This document shows, in pieces, positions 924-6,062 of a stretch of DNA of 64,000 nt. The stretch is from an uncultured Clostridia bacterium (GTDB taxonomy: Bacteria; Bacillota; Clostridia; Christensenellales; Borkfalkiaceae), in NCBI GenBank assembly GCA_947631465.1, contig CANRLK010000003.1:701-64700 (forward strand), given 5' to 3'. A model generated the notes under the pieces. That model had not been told where the DNA came from, made no database searches, and saw nothing but the letters and a program-made list of their open reading frames with translations. Made by a program: the position numbers and the translations under genes. Each line of letters starts with the position of its first letter. Position 1 is the stretch's first letter.

Positions 924-1139
924 TCAAGTCTCGTCTACCCCGAAGAGTTCGTTCGGCGTGATCTCATAGAGTTCGCAAAGCCGCATGATCTGCGCATAAT
1001 TCAATTCAAACACGCCGTTTTCAAACCGACTGTATTGCTGCTGCGTCATCATGAGCGTCGTCGCAACCTCTTTTTGCGTCAATTTCATTTCTTTTCTTGC
1101 ACGCTTTAAATTCTGCCCAACCACTTTTGCAAAATTCAT
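924..1139 (-). CDS. XRE-family helix-turn-helix transcriptional regulator (71 aa)
   Basis: The sequence LKRARKEMKLTQKEVATTLMMTQQQYSRFENG is a typical Cro/C1 HTH. The gene is divergent from the Cys-rich/JAB operon. TGGTATAAA lies 5 nt before the ATG, with no SD, so the mRNA is probably leaderless. Confidence 0.9.
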   Translation of the reverse strand: MNFAKVVGQNLKRARKEMKLTQKEVATTLMMTQQQYSRFENGVFELNYAQIMRLCELYEITPNELFGVDET

Positions 1140-1159
1140 AAAAAATTTATACCATAAAC

Positions 1160-1201
1160 TGATGTAAAATCGTTGACATACATCACATTATGATGTATAA
1201 T
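1160..1201. promoter_or_regulatory. Divergent promoter/operator region
   Basis: The + strand carries TTGACA (1173-1178), a 17-nt spacer and TATAAT (1196-1201). The spacer is filled by the palindrome TACATCA-cat ta-TGATGTA (1179-1197). A third half-site, TGATGTA, lies at 1160-1166 next to the xre start. Confidence 0.7.
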
Positions 1202-1248
1202 AAGATCGAATTTCGATCGAAATATAAAAAACAAAAGGAGAAACAATT

Positions 1249-1434
1249 ATGAAAAAACAAAACAACGAAAAGCAAGTAATCAAATTGCCCGAAGGGAAGT
1301 GCTGCACCTCTTATTGCGGCGACTGCTCTTATTTCAATCCCAGAAAGACATCGTATGGGAAATGCTATTGCGGATATTATAATAGTTATACGCGTACGGC
1401 GAGCGATAGCGCTTGCAGTCATTTTTCAAGGTAA
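1249..1434 (+). CDS. Small Cys/Tyr-rich protein (61 aa), unknown family
   Basis: The SD AAAAGGAGA lies 8 nt upstream of the ATG. The protein has 8 Cys, with the pattern CCTSYCGDCSYF..GKCYCGYY..ACSHF. Its stop codon abuts the start of the JAB gene directly. Confidence 0.6.
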   Translation: MKKQNNEKQVIKLPEGKCCTSYCGDCSYFNPRKTSYGKCYCGYYNSYTRTASDSACSHFSR

Positions 1435-1860
1435 GTGAAGATCTTATCGGGTGTTTATCGGGAAATGATCGACTTCTTTTCCCGCTCGCCCATTGAATCG
1501 GGCGGGATCTTCGGCGCTCAGAAAGGCGTGGTCTGTCGTTTTTGTTCCGACCGCCATGCCGTTCTTTCGGACGAGTATCGACCCAACGTCGAATTTCTCA
1601 ACCGAAAGATCGCCGAATGGGAAAAAGAAAAAATCTTGTTCATCGGAATGGCTCACAGTCATCCGAACGGGCTGCTGCGCCTGTCTTTGGAGGATATGCG
1701 TTACGCGAGAGAGATTATTTCCCGAAATCCGCACTTGAAAGAGCTGAAATTTGCGGTAGCGGCGTCCCGAAAGAACGCATTCCGACTCGCATTCTACGAC
1801 TGTATGCGGGAAGATAAGCGCGGGGAATTTCGGGCGTTGCGCCTCTATAAAATCTCTTGA
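1435..1860 (+). CDS. JAB/MPN (JAMM) metalloprotease domain protein (141 aa)
   Basis: The full JAMM signature is present: E in PIESGGIFG, then HSHPNG....SLEDM (HxH-x7-S-xx-D). The GTG start comes immediately after the TAA of the upstream ORF. Confidence 0.8.
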   Translation: MKILSGVYREMIDFFSRSPIESGGIFGAQKGVVCRFCSDRHAVLSDEYRPNVEFLNRKIAEWEKEKILFIGMAHSHPNGLLRLSLEDMRYAREIISRNPHLKELKFAVAASRKNAFRLAFYDCMREDKRGEFRALRLYKIS

Positions 1861-1887
1861 TTTCGGACTTATCAATATCACTTAATG

Positions 1888-1923
1888 GTTTGAGGCACGA
1901 TCGCTGTGTCTCAAACTTTTTTT
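1888..1923 (+). terminator. Intrinsic terminator of the Cys-rich/JAB operon
   Basis: GTTTGAGGCAC-loop-GTGTCTCAAAC forms an 11-bp stem with one G-U pair. It is followed by TTTTTTT. Confidence 0.8.
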
Positions 1924-2358: not shown

Positions 2359-2811
2359 TTGATGAAAGTCCGATTGCAATGTAACAAGGAAAAGCGGGAA
2401 GAGCTCGAACGCATGCTGCGCGCGGGCGGGTTCGAAGTCTCTTCCTCGGGCGAGCTCGTCCTCTATGAGGAAAACTTCGTTCTAAGCCGTATCCTTCTCA
2501 AAGACGAAAACGGCGGCTTCGAATGGGTCGATATGAACGAGATCGAAATGGTCGAAAGTTTCGATCATATCCTCCTCTTCTACGTCGGGTCGGAACGCTA
2601 TTCCCTGCGCGATCGGCTCTATGCCGTCGAGGAAAAACTCCCAAAGGATAAATTCGTCCGCATCAGCCAATCCTGTATCGTCAACCGCTTGGAGATCGTC
2701 AAGATCGTCCCCACCTTCGGCAGCCGCTATGACGTCACCATGCGCTGCGGCGTCAAAACTTGCGTCACCAAAAGCTATTTCTTGGATTTCAAAAAACGCT
2801 TCGGACTTTGA
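2359..2811 (+). CDS. LytTR-domain DNA-binding regulator (about 150 aa; ATG at 2362 is the likelier start)
   Basis: The C-terminal sequence KFVRISQSCIVNRLEIVKIVPTFGSRYDVTM is a LytTR signature. The SD GGAGAAGGAG lies at 2341-2350. The N-terminal region is short, with no obvious receiver Asp pocket. Confidence 0.8.
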   Translation: MMKVRLQCNKEKREELERMLRAGGFEVSSSGELVLYEENFVLSRILLKDENGGFEWVDMNEIEMVESFDHILLFYVGSERYSLRDRLYAVEEKLPKDKFVRISQSCIVNRLEIVKIVPTFGSRYDVTMRCGVKTCVTKSYFLDFKKRFGL

Positions 2812-2839
2812 GTCTTATCAAAAAATAGGAGGTATTTTT

Positions 2840-3820
2840 ATGGAATTGTTAATCTCTGAGATTTTATGGATCGTCTTGTCGGCATTCATCGTGGTCGGCG
2901 TCACGGTGCTCGTCTTATATCGAAAACTCCTGCCCTCGCTCTTGCTCTCGCGCGTCAAACAGAAAAAACGCCGCCTGCATCTTCCCGACTTTTCTACCGT
3001 CGTCACCGTCTTTGTCTTTCTCTTGATCGTGCTGGTGCTCCTTACCGCGCTGCAAATGAGCTACGAACGGTCGTATACCGTCGGCTGGTATGTTCCGACC
3101 GATTTCTTCCTGTTCAAGCGCAGACTTTACAGCATCGATACGCTCGCCTCACTTTTGATCATCAATTTCTTGGAAGCGGGTCTCTTTTACGTTTATGACT
3201 GTATCCTGTATAAGAGTTTCAAAAGAGTCGGATTCAGCTTTTTGCCGCTCAGTCTCTTTACGCTATTCGCCTACCTTATTTTTCAACAGATGAATGAGAT
3301 TTACATGTATTTATATGTGATCATGATCATCCTGCTTTTGCTCGCCAATATGATCGTGCCGCTTCTGAAAATCGTCACGGTCAAGCGGAGCAAGTGGGAG
3401 ACCGTGTTTCTTCTTTTCCGCGGGGTCTGGCGCACGGCGGCAATGTTCATGCTGGCATACTTTGCAGAGTCGATTTTCAATATGATCGATGATCAGCTTC
3501 TCCTGTATATGAGCTATTTCGCAGTCGTCTATATGATCGCCCTCATTTTCTCCTTGACGGACGCCGTCGTCAAGACCTTGAAGTTCTTCTCGGAGTTTGC
3601 AAGCGCGGAGCGCACGATCAAACGCCTCAATGACGTGCAAGAAGATCGAGTCGGATTGGAAGCGGTCTTTGAACTCGACGAGGAAGAGAGGATGGAACGG
3701 GCGGCGTTGGACGAGTCCATCATCGCGTTGAAGGACTATCCCCCGCGCTTCTTTATCCTGTACGATTGGATCTTGGCTTGGAGATTTCCCAAGACATTTG
3801 AGCTTTGGAAAAATCATTAA
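2840..3820 (+). CDS. Polytopic membrane protein (326 aa) with an acidic cytoplasmic tail, partner of the LytTR regulator
   Basis: AGGAGG at 2828-2833 precedes the ATG at 2840. There are about 7 hydrophobic segments, then an EDR-rich tail. The tracked ORF 2621-3820 is an upstream extension that overlaps the LytTR gene. Confidence 0.7.
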   Translation: MELLISEILWIVLSAFIVVGVTVLVLYRKLLPSLLLSRVKQKKRRLHLPDFSTVVTVFVFLLIVLVLLTALQMSYERSYTVGWYVPTDFFLFKRRLYSIDTLASLLIINFLEAGLFYVYDCILYKSFKRVGFSFLPLSLFTLFAYLIFQQMNEIYMYLYVIMIILLLLANMIVPLLKIVTVKRSKWETVFLLFRGVWRTAAMFMLAYFAESIFNMIDDQLLLYMSYFAVVYMIALIFSLTDAVVKTLKFFSEFASAERTIKRLNDVQEDRVGLEAVFELDEEERMERAALDESIIALKDYPPRFFILYDWILAWRFPKTFELWKNH

Positions 3821-3826
3821 AAAATC

Positions 3827-3855
3827 ACGGCGGACAATTCGTCCGCCGTATTTTA
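3827..3855 (+). terminator. Intrinsic terminator
   Basis: ACGGCGGAC-aattc-GTCCGCCGT is followed by ATTTTAC. Confidence 0.7.
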
Positions 3856-3894
3856 CAATATAAAAATTATGTCAAGGCTCGTTTGCGGCACACC

Positions 3895-4003
3895 CCTTGG
3901 CTATTCCTTCTGTGGCGCGCGCCGCGCCCTTACTCTTGGCTCCCCCTCTGGAATAGGGGGAGCTGGCACGCATTTATGCGTGACTGAGGGGGTGTCTCCT
4001 TTT
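3895..4003 (-). repeat. Single inverted copy of the hairpin repeat
   Basis: The reverse complement aligns with 601-708. The first 35 nt are identical and a 26-nt block (GCGCGCCACAGAAGGAATAGCCAAGG) is identical. A 14-nt centre is divergent. Confidence 0.85.
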
Positions 4004-4007
4004 GGTT

Positions 4008-4478
4008 TCAGTCGCCCGACTTCAAGGGGTTTTGGGCGGTAATCTTTTCGGCGATCTCGACAAAGTTCTTTGCGTCCGCCTCGCCGATGATGTCCACGAT
4101 CTGCCTTGCGATTTTGAGGGACTGGTCGTGCACCGTAAGGTATTCGGGCAAATTTTCTTTGACGATGCGCACAAAGGTCATGCGCTTGTCCGTGCCGCTG
4201 CAACGCTCCAAAAAGCCCTTCGCGGTGAGGGAATCGATCGTGCGGTTGACGAGAGATTTGAGCATTTTCGTCTCCCGTGTGATCTCTTTGAAGGAGATGA
4301 GCCCCTCTTCGTCCGAAAGATAGCGGCGATAGGCGAGCAGCATGACGGTCGCCTCGTTATAGTTCATGCCCTGCGTCATGCGCGTGTTTTTGAGCGTGCT
4401 CGTGAGTTTCACCCATGCCAAAATGAGTGCCTCGTCCAGCCCTTCCTTTAAGCCGCCGTTTTTGTCTTTTTCTTCCAT
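4008..4478 (-). CDS. MarR-family transcriptional regulator
   Basis: The winged-helix region is ISFKEITRETKMLKSLVNRTIDSLTAKGFLER. The SD GGGGGAGAAG lies upstream. Confidence 0.85.
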   Translation of the reverse strand: MEEKDKNGGLKEGLDEALILAWVKLTSTLKNTRMTQGMNYNEATVMLLAYRRYLSDEEGLISFKEITRETKMLKSLVNRTIDSLTAKGFLERCSGTDKRMTFVRIVKENLPEYLTVHDQSLKIARQIVDIIGEADAKNFVEIAEKITAQNPLKSGD

Positions 4479-4498
4479 GACTTCTCCCCCGATCGTGA

Positions 4499-4515
4499 TT
4501 ACAAAAGGATTGTAA
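4499..4515. promoter_or_regulatory. Candidate MarR operator palindrome
   Basis: TTACAA-aagga-TTGTAA lies in the marR upstream region. Confidence 0.35.
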
Positions 4516-4545
4516 CAAATTTTTTCCGTTCTGTCAAGAGTTCGA

Positions 4546-4574
4546 TTGCTTTTCCGCAGAAAACGCTGTATAAT
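4546..4574 (+). promoter_or_regulatory. Sigma-A-type promoter
   Basis: TTGCTT (4546-4551), a 17-nt spacer and TATAAT (4569-4574). Confidence 0.6.
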
Positions 4575-4605
4575 AGAGGAGTTCTCAACTTATCAACCTT
4601 TTTGC

Positions 4606-4624
4606 TGTGGATAACTGTGGATAA
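4606..4624. promoter_or_regulatory. Two tandem perfect DnaA boxes
   Basis: TGTGGATAA occurs at 4606-4614 and 4616-4624. It is the reverse complement of the consensus TTATCCACA. A weaker TTATCAACC lies at 4590-4598. Confidence 0.7.
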
Positions 4625-4646
4625 ACCCCCGAAGGAGTGGACAACC

Positions 4647-4853
4647 ATGTCGCAATATGACTTGATGAAGCTGTTCGAGCAGTTCGACGGCGAGATCTCG
4701 GAGTGCGATTTTACGGCAGAGGAGATGGAAGAGTATCTCCGATATTCAGACAGCCAAAAGGCGGGCGCGGAAGTTCCGCTTTCGCCCGCCCAATGGAAAA
4801 AACAATATTTCTCCTATTATGATGATGTGAAGGATAAATCCCTTAAAAACTAG
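4647..4853 (+). CDS. Small acidic hypothetical protein (68 aa)
   Basis: The SD GAAGGAG at 4631-4637 precedes the ATG at 4647. The tracked ORF 4602-4853 starts inside the DnaA boxes, so I prefer the shorter form. Confidence 0.55.
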   Translation: MSQYDLMKLFEQFDGEISECDFTAEEMEEYLRYSDSQKAGAEVPLSPAQWKKQYFSYYDDVKDKSLKN

Positions 4854-4864
4854 GATTGGTAACT

Positions 4865-5452
4865 TTACCGATCGGTTAGCAGTTGTTTCTTCCCGTCGAG
4901 GAAGGGGCTTGCGCCGCGCTTTCTCATGCGATATACGAAGAAGTAGAGGGGCGCGCCGAGCGCGTAGATCCAGATGGACTGCGAGACGAGGAGGGAGACG
5001 AAATTCCAGGTATAGGCGATGAGCGCGGTCTCGAATCCTTCCGTGAAGCCGCCGATGTAGACGATGACGACGGGGATGATGAGCGCGTTCAAAAGGACGG
5101 GAAAGAGCCCGCCGAGGGCAACGCGGAGGATATGGGCGAACTTGTTTTTCGAAGTTTCGCGGAGGAGCTTTCCGATGAGGAAGGTCAAGAAAGCGGCGAC
5201 GAGGGTGACGAGAGAGCCCAAAAAGATGTCTGCGACGCCGTACTGCGAGATGACGTTCGAGAGCATGCAGCCGACAAAAAGCGCGGGGATCGCTTCGACA
5301 TAGAACAGGGGGAGAATGCAGAGCGCTTCTGCGGGACGGAATTGGAAGAGCCCGACGAAGCTCATCATTCCGAAAGAACAAGTAAGCGCAACATACAGCG
5401 CGGCAATGATGCCCGCGCGGCAGATGCGCCTGACGGAAAACAGTTGTTTCAT
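4865..5452 (-). CDS. queT: Queuosine-precursor transporter QueT (ECF S-component-like)
   Basis: It is a 195-aa polytopic protein with a QueT-like N-terminus (AALYVALT...FQFRPAEAL..LP). A preQ1-type leader lies upstream. Confidence 0.75.
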   Translation of the reverse strand: MKQLFSVRRICRAGIIAALYVALTCSFGMMSFVGLFQFRPAEALCILPLFYVEAIPALFVGCMLSNVISQYGVADIFLGSLVTLVAAFLTFLIGKLLRETSKNKFAHILRVALGGLFPVLLNALIIPVVIVYIGGFTEGFETALIAYTWNFVSLLVSQSIWIYALGAPLYFFVYRMRKRGASPFLDGKKQLLTDR

Positions 5453-5461
5453 AAAGTTGTA

Positions 5462-5504
5462 CCTCGGTTTTTTTAATCGGAAGTGTTTGCCGAAAACCTT
5501 CCGT
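5462..5504 (-). ncRNA. Candidate preQ1-I riboswitch
   Basis: The minus strand reads CGGAAG-GUUUUCGGCAAACA-CUUCCG-AUUAAAAAAA-CCGAGG. This gives a 5-6 bp P1. Loop UCGG can pair with tail CCGA, forming an H-type pseudoknot. The tail is A-rich and the pseudoknot would occlude the SD GAGG. The promoter is TTGACG-17-TAGAAT at 5530-5512. Confidence 0.6.
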
Positions 5505-5549
5505 GCATTTTATTCTATCACGATTTTGTTGCCCCGTCAAGCGTTTTTC

Positions 5550-5759
5550 TCAGGAAAGGGGGTCGGTCGGACGAAATGCGGCGAGCCAGAAGGCGAGCCA
5601 TGCCGCCGCAACGCCCGTGAGCGACAGCAGTGCGCGATAGACCGCTTGATTATAAAAGCAGAGAAAGAGCAATAAATCGAACCCCGAAAAGGCAAAGACG
5701 GTCAAAAAAACGCCCGTCAAGATCAGATACGCCGAGCATAGGATCGTTGTGAGTTTCAT
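5550..5759 (-). CDS. Small hydrophobic membrane protein (69 aa)
   Basis: It has two or three predicted TM segments and no recognisable family. Confidence 0.4.
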   Translation of the reverse strand: MKLTTILCSAYLILTGVFLTVFAFSGFDLLLFLCFYNQAVYRALLSLTGVAAAWLAFWLAAFRPTDPLS

Positions 5760-5804
5760 GCGATTAGTATTTGATACGGGCGGGTTTTTATAAGCAGGAT
5801 AAGA

Positions 5805-6062
5805 CTAATCGATCTTTTCCAGAACGAGCTTTGAAAAGTCGATATGTTCCATAAAATCGGACGGGCGAAAGACGACGTGGCGGAATTTCGCATAGTTGAA
5901 AATATGCGTTTTCAGAAGGACGGGCGTGGGGATGTCGAGCTTTTCGCAGATCCTTGTGAGGTATGAGAAAAACTCGGCGTAGGAGAAGGTCTCCTCGCAC
6001 GCGAAGGTGAACTGTTTTGCGATGTGTTCTCCGTGATAGACTTTTGCCCAAATGCGAAACAT
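5805..6062 (-). CDS. Hypothetical protein (85 aa)
   Basis: The start MFRIWAKVYHGEH is preferred because TGCTATAAT lies 6 nt upstream of it on the minus strand, indicating a leaderless mRNA. Confidence 0.5.
   Translation of the reverse strand: MFRIWAKVYHGEHIAKQFTFACEETFSYAEFFSYLTRICEKLDIPTPVLLKTHIFNYAKFRHVVFRPSDFMEHIDFSKLVLEKID

Follow-up and report, generated by a model that had tools for sequence, protein, structure and literature searches.

Prokaryotic JAB/JAMM metalloproteases are, to our knowledge, understood almost entirely through their ubiquitin-like (Ubl) partners: sulfur carriers, the cyclic oligonucleotide-based anti-phage signalling system (CBASS), the bacterial ISG15-like (Bil) system, small archaeal modifier proteins (SAMPs), and the tail protein gpI. 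Here we describe a cassette in which a protease of this class is paired with a Cys/Tyr-rich protein of 61 residues, which we call the mini-protein. The cassette occupies positions 924–1923 of a 64-kb stretch of DNA from an uncultured Clostridia bacterium (contig CANRLK010000003.1); the window, as used below, means this whole stretch. Within approximately 1 kb, the cassette holds the divergent gene of an XRE-family repressor, a promoter with an operator, the open reading frame (ORF) of the mini-protein, the ORF of a 141-residue JAMM protease (the window JAB), and a terminator. We propose that it is a mobile, repressor-gated two-protein module with toxin–antitoxin-like or conflict logic, in which the mini-protein binds metal and serves the protease as its cognate inhibitor or substrate. 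We put the probability of this reading at roughly 0.45, slightly short of even.

Minimal JAMM enzymes, such as JAMM1 of Pyrococcus furiosus (PDB: 5LD9, 5LDA) and DSY2949 of Desulfitobacterium (PDB: 2KKS), resemble the window JAB in being single domains of approximately 140 residues with the motif E...HxH-x7-S-x2-D and the MPN fold. JAMM1 acts on beta-grasp SAMPs with a Gly-Gly end, which an E1 enzyme attaches, whereas the partner of the window JAB is a mini-protein with five conserved cysteines (Cys5) and without Gly-Gly, no E1 is encoded, and the Pfam score lies under the cut-off. The JAB fold is also shared with Cap3 of CBASS (PDB: 9ILD, E = 5e-5), BilC of Bil, and the JAB models of PADLOC, which match the window JAB at 4e-6, and these systems have a similarly patchy, mobile distribution. 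However, no CD-NTase, Cap2 (E1–E2), or Ubl gene is present at any locus of the pair.

The repressor invites a second comparison. ImmR/ImmA of ICEBs1, CapH/CapP, and DdrO/IrrE likewise place a small XRE protein next to a zinc metalloprotease, in or near mobile DNA and with the operator inside the promoter. Their proteases are of the M78/COG2856 HEXXH type, whereas the window protease is a JAMM enzyme without a hit to any HEXXH family. Furthermore, the window protease is encoded within the repressed operon, the XRE can be exchanged and is often missing, and the mini-protein is an obligatory third component. Type II and three-component toxin–antitoxin (TA) systems are alike in their two short, coupled genes, tightly repressed strong promoter, variable location, low GC content, occurrence on contigs that resemble plasmids or integrative and conjugative elements, and the frequent decay of one partner. 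The cassette has the layout of a type II TA system, with adjacent small genes that are predicted to be co-transcribed and coupled, and a patchy mobile distribution. In contrast to type II TA systems, the two proteins cannot be assigned to known toxin or antitoxin families, and no DNA-binding domain is recognisable in the mini-protein. Both JAMM proteases and XRE-gated cassettes are kinds of element that are already known. What is absent from Pfam, NCBIfam, PADLOC, and PHROGs is a JAMM subfamily obligately paired with this Cys5 mini-protein family, and no pair of a JAB and a Cys-rich mini-protein was found in the literature searched, including Iyer et al. 2006 (PMC1779556).

Pairing of the mini-protein and JAB genes

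Related loci fetched for comparison are numbered with L, and protein or cluster records with P. The close clade consists of the window, L001, L002–4, L005–8, L009–10, and ten GTDB species genomes (L012–L021), and the mini-protein gene precedes the JAB gene in all 14 of its distinct loci. The order is JAB then mini-protein in the distant loci L011, L022–L026, and L027–L029 and in most metagenome loci, and mini-protein then JAB in the distant loci L032, L033, and L034. A metagenome scan for the family returned 204 loci, 80 of which were fetched; they include 13 distinct mini-protein cores, and every fetched locus with enough sequence has a JAB gene on the same strand within 2 kb of the mini-protein gene. 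Cargo genes can lie between the two, namely HD_4 and AAA_28-CYTH genes in L040/L043, a radical-SAM gene in L050, and genes for proteins of 226 aa (L047) and 257 aa (L090) with no assigned family. The JAB and the mini-protein are fused in one cluster of three sequences (P0018, P0136, P0137). The sole exception to the pairing is the most divergent hit, P0027 (L035/L036), next to which a DUF8412 protein is encoded instead of a JAB, and its membership in the family is doubtful.

The initial annotation of this DNA had tied the small ORF to the JAB gene and asked whether a JAB is always adjacent. The tie is kept across gene orders, insertions, and a fusion, and a same-strand JAB is close by wherever a locus has enough sequence; the order varies, and strict adjacency fails where cargo genes intervene. 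Because the linkage survives changes of order, insertions, and fusion, it is very likely that the two proteins work together, and they probably form a physical complex.

The two genes abut or overlap in the close clade. The junction is TAA|GTG in the window, GTGA in L001, and TTGA in L002/L016, and a stop codon followed by one nucleotide and TTG or GTG in L005, L009, L012, L014, and L019. Coupled or overlapping non-ATG starts of the JAB are thus found in most close relatives, with no room for a separate ribosome-binding site, which implies translational coupling by termination–reinitiation. The GTG at 1435, directly behind the TAA of the small ORF, had been annotated as the JAB start. Public gene callers (P0003, P0004, P0142) begin the protein at an internal ATG at 1465, which shortens it to 131 aa and removes the conserved N-terminal helix KILSxVYxEM. 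Since the KILSxVYxE block is common to relatives, the GTG start is favoured. Public callers also missed the small ORF in L005–L008 and L011, and L011 has an opposite-strand call of 124 aa over it.

In the window, the two ORFs share a reading frame with a single TAA between them (1432–1437), and read-through would yield a mini-protein–JAB fusion of 203 residues. The frames differ in other loci, and the shared frame is therefore probably coincidental. The natural fusions P0018, P0136, and P0137 have the opposite order, with the JAB first.

The mini-protein family

The mini-protein contains seven cysteines (18, 19, 23, 26, 39, 41, 56) and seven tyrosines; of the eight cysteines and seven tyrosines first reported, only the tyrosine count stands. 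Only two close relatives came up in a word-indexed search. When 1.84 billion cluster representatives were searched exhaustively with a HMMER profile, 21 matched at E ≤ 1e-3, and a profile of diverse members enlarged the family to 115 clusters with lengths of 55–95 aa. Only one of the 115 clusters has a Pfam match, which lies on a fused N-terminal part, and the sole name given by the source is "hypothetical protein". Twenty family members have no match in Pfam or NCBIfam, PADLOC has no match to the mini-protein, and PHROGs has only a non-significant one to the unknown-function family phrog_29972 (E = 0.32).

The 14 close-clade genes, taken from the window and from metagenome-assembled genomes of uncultured Clostridia and Christensenellaceae, are saturated at synonymous sites. 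The non-synonymous divergence (pN) is lower than the synonymous divergence (pS) in 91 of 91 pairs, with a median pN of 0.22 and a median pS of 0.83. By this substitution pattern, purifying selection acts on the small ORF, which is thus no chance ORF but a real gene; together with the conservation of the family, this bears out its annotation as a conserved, translated gene.

The family signature was derived from 103 sequences. A variable N-terminus rich in Lys, Glu, and Asn is followed by [LI]-P-x-G, with the proline present in 99 and the glycine in 98 sequences. The middle part comprises C19, C23-x-D25-C26 with aromatic residues at +2/+3, then G37, [YW]40-C41-x-x-Y44, and an aromatic run. The signature ends with G-C56-x-x-[FY]59 and a short variable tail. 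Cysteines 23, 26, and 56 are present in all 103 sequences, C41 in 102, and C19 in 91. The family is thus characterized by five conserved cysteines within a conserved aromatic shell, and it is because of these that we propose a metal site, in which the cysteines would be ligands of zinc or of an Fe-S cluster. The mini-protein has no hydrophobic segment (maximum Kyte–Doolittle score, KD(15), 0.23) and is therefore predicted to be cytoplasmic.

The structure of the mini-protein predicted by AlphaFold2 from the 103-sequence alignment contains three short strands and has a mean predicted local distance difference test score (pLDDT) of 67. A Foldseek search with the model found no fold match, the best E-value being 4.1, and sequence profiles of the PDB gave only weak matches to LUC7 and CBP20 (E > 0.1). 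Known Fe-S and Zn-ribbon families were rejected as relatives, as there is no Pfam HIPIP or zinc-ribbon match, and the PDB profiles and Foldseek gave nothing significant. The C-x2-C-x14-C-x14-C arrangement of the mini-protein, in which aromatic residues stand at +2/+3 relative to the Cys ligands, is similar to the cluster site of high-potential iron-sulfur proteins (HiPIPs), and the HiPIP structure 3HIP is at rank 12 of the Foldseek hits (E = 9.7). However, the mini-protein has a fifth conserved cysteine, is predicted to be cytoplasmic, and comes from anaerobic Firmicutes. A HiPIP-like site was set aside as a pattern-level lead, since the hhalign probability with a hand-entered C. vinosum HiPIP sequence was 0.9%.

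Structure of the JAB protease

The window JAB contains the complete JAMM signature that had been read in it, E21 and H74-S-H76-x7-S84-x2-D87. It scores 22.4 bits against Pfam Prok-JAB (PF14464), below the gathering cut-off of 25, and by its profile scores is a divergent subfamily of Prok-JAB. A profile search of the PDB matched it to JAMM1 of P. furiosus (PfJAMM1) at E = 0.004. The AlphaFold2 model of the JAB has a pLDDT of 80 and a predicted TM-score of 0.72. The Foldseek search proposed in the initial annotation confirmed the MPN fold: the top match is PfJAMM1 (5LD9, E = 3.8e-7), followed by BRCC36, Rpn11, DSY2949, and Cap3, all with a probability of 1.00, and the TM-scores of the model to PfJAMM1, Rpn11, BRCC36, and Cap3 are 0.6–0.7. 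The ExGG and HxH...SxxD motifs are intact in 47 of 53 distinct JAB ORFs of the family, because of which the subfamily looks catalytically active.

In five loci (L001, L041, L085, L102, L109), a decayed JAB is located beside an intact small ORF. The JAB of L001 is truncated after HSHPN and carries the substitution E21K. Such copies are an indirect hint that the JAB may be toxic.

Repressor, promoter, and operator

The 71-residue XRE repressor consists of a single helix-turn-helix (HTH) domain, and the profile search found no sensor or peptidase domain in it. L012 and L014 have orthologues of it (1e-32) in the same divergent position, which other XRE types fill in L002/L016, L005/L017/L019, L009, and L020. 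The block of promoter and operator is almost invariant across the window, L012, and L014, although the synonymous sites of the flanking genes are saturated, and the half-site TGATGTA 5' of the -35 box (Table 1) is invariant in the same three loci. Promoters that match 11–12 of 12 consensus positions lie at the same place in L002, L005, L009, L012, L014, L019, and L020. Each XRE type is paired with its own perfect palindrome in the 17-nt promoter spacer, so that six XRE/palindrome pairs share one layout. That repressor type and operator vary together while the architecture stays the same supports the control by the XRE through an operator in a consensus promoter that had been proposed for the window, and repression would occur by promoter occlusion.

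There is no XRE beside the pair in L013, L015, and L021 or in any distant clade. Judged by this distribution, the XRE is an exchangeable gate outside the core of the pair. The position of the extended -10-like TGGTATAAA six nucleotides 5' of the XRE start codon suggests that the XRE mRNA is leaderless; a tool scan proposes a different, weaker minus-strand promoter for the XRE (1216..1187, 9/12).

Proposed mechanism and its alternatives

In the resting state, a very strong promoter would be shut by an XRE dimer on the palindrome between its -35 and -10 boxes, and, by way of the third half-site, the XRE would probably repress the divergent promoter of its own gene as well. Upon derepression, or entry into a cell without the repressor, the mini-protein would be translated first, and ribosomes would re-initiate at the JAB start after its stop codon. 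If the JAB is made only by re-initiation, the protease would never exceed its partner. The mini-protein would bind metal (Zn or Fe-S) through its Cys ligands and form a complex with the JAMM protease, either as an inhibitor or pseudo-substrate that restrains it or as its substrate, and the protease would be the effector. The distribution of the pair and the genes next to it speak for a role that is selfish or lies in addiction or conflict, and against a housekeeping one. The signs of mobility and conflict are the low GC content, the differing flanks, the integrase in L013, the recombinase and plasmid-like neighbours, a HerA-like ATPase that matches mad8/HerA models, and the decay of the JAB beside an intact small ORF.

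Several points weigh against this module. The gene order varies, with the JAB in front in most of the family, which limits an "antitoxin first" argument to the clade of the window. The pair frequently has no XRE next to it, as described above. The decayed JAB copies from metagenomes may be assembly errors, and the converse case exists in the fusion P0018, which lacks the last Cys region. The model of the mini-protein is of moderate confidence and without a known fold, and metal binding is proposed from the cysteine pattern. Finally, PADLOC found only generic JAB and HTH similarity in the window.

Because partners vary in other clades, the pair may be a control or sensor core that is joined elsewhere to a HerA-like ATPase, HD and AAA-CYTH proteins, membrane proteins, or a STAND kinase. 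More tentatively still, and with considerable doubt, the Cys5 family could be a new kind of JAMM inhibitor or pseudo-substrate that is not a beta-grasp protein and depends on metal (Zn-thiolate or Fe-S, redox- or oxygen-sensitive). Together with the protease it would then form the sensor and effector core of unrecognised TA systems or systems against mobile genetic elements in gut Clostridia, wired clade by clade to XRE, HerA-like, HD/CYTH, and membrane proteins. A complex of the two proteins would mean that a JAMM enzyme can be controlled or targeted independently of Ubl proteins. The small-protein family, which is common in the gut metagenomes of humans and animals (204 loci in one scan), would thereby gain a name and a partner that can be tested. 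Of all versions, that of the window is the simplest, 1 kb being enough for the repressor, the mini-protein, and the protease, and it is therefore a convenient experimental entry point.

The best of the alternatives, which we nevertheless consider unlikely, is a switch analogous to ImmR/ImmA, CapH/CapP, and DdrO/IrrE, in which the JAMM protease cleaves the 71-aa XRE and the mini-protein is a redox or metal sensor, which would, for example, release Zn on oxidation, thereby turn on the protease, and lead to induction with positive feedback. The XRE has an HTH domain only, with neither a self-cleaving nor a sensor domain, so that some partner must relieve repression. A divergent XRE and operator are present in most close-clade loci, and there is weak similarity to PADLOC capH (E = 0.02). 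A comparable case is DdrO/IrrE, which is reported to be activated by zinc released under oxidative stress (PMC7907104). However, the pair occurs without an adjacent XRE in L013, L015, L021, and all distant subfamilies, and therefore the XRE is not a general substrate. The XRE types of different loci are non-orthologous while the JAB and mini-protein are orthologous, which fits an exchangeable regulator over a co-evolving substrate. Moreover, the protease is not of the HEXXH M78 type, and it is encoded inside the repressed operon and not co-transcribed with the repressor.

It is improbable that the mini-protein is the precursor of a ribosomally synthesized and post-translationally modified peptide (RiPP), with the JAB as a leader peptidase that cuts at P-x-G and releases a Cys-rich peptide, possibly under LytTR control. 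The initial annotation had suggested such a secreted Cys-rich precursor, with bacteriocin-type regulation by the neighbouring LytTR system. The variable, charged N-terminus, the conserved [LI]-P-x-G, and the Cys-rich core are in line with a precursor, and a radical-SAM/methyltransferase cluster lies directly 3' of the pair in L022, L040, L043, and L050, accompanied in L022 by an additional 40-aa Cys-rich ORF. However, conservation is inverted relative to this expectation, with a variable leader and a nearly invariant core, and neither a hydrophobic nor a signal segment is present in the protein. There is no gene for a modification enzyme, transporter, or immunity protein in the window, the close clade, or most other loci, and we know of no JAMM enzyme that acts as a leader peptidase. 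Homologues of the LytTR and membrane proteins of the window are absent at E ≤ 1e-3 from L001–L029 and L032–L036, so that the bacteriocin reading is left unsupported.

Still less probable is a disguised system of Ubl deconjugation or sulfur transfer, in which the mini-protein would replace the beta-grasp modifier and the JAB would trim or deconjugate its C-terminus, as in Mec+/CysO, QbsD/QbsE, Cap3, BilC, and JAMM1/SAMP. The closest structures are indeed those of the deconjugases PfJAMM1, Rpn11, BRCC36, and Cap3, and a small partner protein is encoded beside the JAB, as is the case for Ubl proteins. Against this, no E1, E2, ThiF-like, or rhodanese gene is part of the operon at any locus, and the ThiF gene of L002–L004 is 3.5 kb away behind unrelated genes. 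The C-termini of the mini-proteins (SHFSR, SHYSH, LSYKG, and others) are short and variable without a conserved Gly-Gly, a minority ending in a single Gly, and the Cys-rich protein is predicted to adopt a three-stranded mini-fold rather than a beta-grasp.

That the pair is a remnant of a phage tail-tip module (lambda gpL followed by gpK, with JAB and NlpC/P60 domains) is hardly credible: a Cys-cluster protein followed by a JAB parallels the lambda L–K order, gpL carries an Fe-S cluster, PHROG tail families match the JAB weakly (E = 0.06–0.44), and hhalign aligns it to gpK with a probability of 72% over the HxH..S..D motif only, but the mini-protein family aligns to gpL with a probability of 0.3%, no NlpC/P60 domain or phage gene is nearby, and the viral collections contain neither subfamily (IMG/VR, 0 hits) nor P0074 (INPHARED, 0 hits).

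Genomic context of the pair

The absence of the usual JAB partners from around the cassette had been noted previously and extends to the relatives: neither the surroundings of the cassette in the window nor the related loci contain Ubl, E1, E2, CD-NTase, tail, or RadC-type genes. JAB homologues embedded in tail or ubiquitin-like operons were looked for, and none were found in this subfamily. Searches with tblastn gave no hit in PLSDB for the window JAB or for P0074, the small protein of the main subfamily, and none in INPHARED for P0074; IMG/VR has no hit for either subfamily. Additional genes beside the distant JABs, which encode proteins of 151–200 aa and 477–490 aa, have no UBC, ThiF, or PADLOC match.

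The pair lies between housekeeping genes that differ among close relatives: L012/L014 have a ClpC-like ATPase, L013 an integrase and a Sel1 protein, L015 EF-G and rubrerythrin, and L002/L005/L016 iPGM. The neighbours in the window are MarR, QueT, a class II aminoacyl-tRNA synthetase, HolB, and PSP1. Distant members adjoin a serine recombinase, an IS110 element, a coupling protein of a type IV secretion system, a Rep_1 plasmid-like contig, and a Phd antitoxin.

In the commonest human-gut variant (L086 and approximately 60 similar loci; 2485–5819), the JAB and mini-protein genes are followed by that of an 868-aa HerA/FtsK-like ATPase, which matches PADLOC mad8 at 5e-16 and several HerA models, and a serine recombinase adjoins. 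This arrangement suggests a three-gene system of JAB, mini-protein, and HerA-like ATPase on a mobile element. The loci L022, L024, L037, and L042 appear to be related elements; 5' of the JAB they encode a Pkinase-NB-ARC-TPR (STAND-like) protein of approximately 1470 aa and two proteins of 453–490 aa and 147–159 aa, neither of which has an above-threshold Pfam match or a PADLOC match. A putative RiPP-type cluster is located directly after the pair in L022/L023 (5253–9710), and also in the human-gut contigs L037, L040, L043, and L050. Besides a 40-aa ORF whose product ends in SSCLCRCSDG, it comprises two radical-SAM/Fer4_12 enzymes and two methyltransferases.

Organization of the cassette and its surroundings

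The XRE gene, the promoter with its spacer palindrome, the Shine-Dalgarno sequence, both ORFs, and the terminator were all found where the initial annotation had placed them (Table 1). The cassette has a GC content of 44% and its intergenic region 24%, compared with 55% for the whole window and 59–60% for the flanking repeats. The cassette had been described as flanked by repeats in more AT-rich DNA, but the relation is the reverse, with an AT-rich cassette and GC-rich repeats.

Table 1. Features of the cassette in window coordinates, and promoter-spacer palindromes of related loci
Feature	Position	Strand	Evidence or remark
XRE-family repressor, 71 aa	924..1139	-	HTH_19 2.5e-13, HTH_3 8.5e-13
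Possible extended -10 TGGTATAAA, 6 nt 5' of XRE ATG	1146..1154	-	Sequence inspection
Third operator half-site TGATGTA, 5' of -35 box, within putative XRE promoter region	1160..1166	.	Direct repeat of 1191-1201
Sigma-70 promoter of mini-protein–JAB operon: TTGACA 1173-1178, 17-nt spacer, TATAAT 1196-1201	1173..1201	+	12/12
Operator palindrome ATACATCA-cattA-TGATGTAT	1178..1198	.	8-nt arms, 100% complementary; fills promoter spacer
Second palindrome GATCGAATTTCGATC in 5' untranslated region	1204..1218	.	Not conserved in L012 or L014
Shine-Dalgarno AAGGAG, ATG of small ORF 8 nt further on	1235..1240	+	Sequence inspection
Cys/Tyr-rich mini-protein, 61 aa	1249..1434	+	ORF; pN << pS
Minimal JAMM/MPN+ metalloprotease, 141 aa, GTG start	1435..1860	+	JAMM motif, AlphaFold2 model, Foldseek
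Intrinsic terminator: 13-bp stem (1887-1917), 5-nt loop, T7 run	1887..1923	+	Sequence scan
Spacer palindrome of L002, CTAAT-tatt-ATTAG			
Spacer palindrome of L005 / L019, TACGAGAA-a-TTCTCGTA			
Spacer palindrome of L009, ACAAGTC-gtataa-GACTTGT			
Spacer palindrome of L020, TATTATAC-caaatag-GTATAATA			

The second operon next to the cassette (2359–3820) encodes a stand-alone LytTR DNA-binding protein of 150 aa without a receiver domain, followed by a polytopic membrane protein of 326 aa. We take this pair to resemble a LytTR regulator with its membrane inhibitor, as in "LytTR regulatory systems" of the HdrRM/BrsRM type. Linkage of this operon to the JAB cassette was rejected on the homologue search given above (no homologues at E ≤ 1e-3 in L001–L029 and L032–L036). 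The only nearby LytTR gene annotated by Pfam is in L032, and it is unrelated to that of the window.

GC-rich two-hairpin repeats are located at 1–720, 1933–2210, and 3923–4004 of the window. The repeat unit consists of the flank AAGGAGACACCCCCTCAG, a palindromic first hairpin of variable sequence, a conserved second hairpin CUCCCCCU-AUUUCAG-AGGGGGAG, and CCAAG. All six copies of the repeat core in the 64 kb fall within its first 4 kb, with 0.00 expected by chance. The folding z-scores of single repeat units range from -1.3 to -5.0, three of four being below -2.9. The repeats have no Rfam match. They were rejected as the ends of the cassette, as their motif has 0 matches in the 116 related loci scanned, and they look like REP/MITE-like (repetitive extragenic palindromic or miniature inverted-repeat) elements of the host genome and not of the cassette family. 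Two 70-nt copies at 598–667 and 3935–4004 are inverted and 94% complementary, and bracket 3.4 kb that include the LytTR/membrane operon as well as the XRE/mini-protein/JAB cassette; a copy in direct orientation (1942–2001) lies between the two operons. The bracketed 3.4 kb could be a composite insertion or a recombination hot spot.

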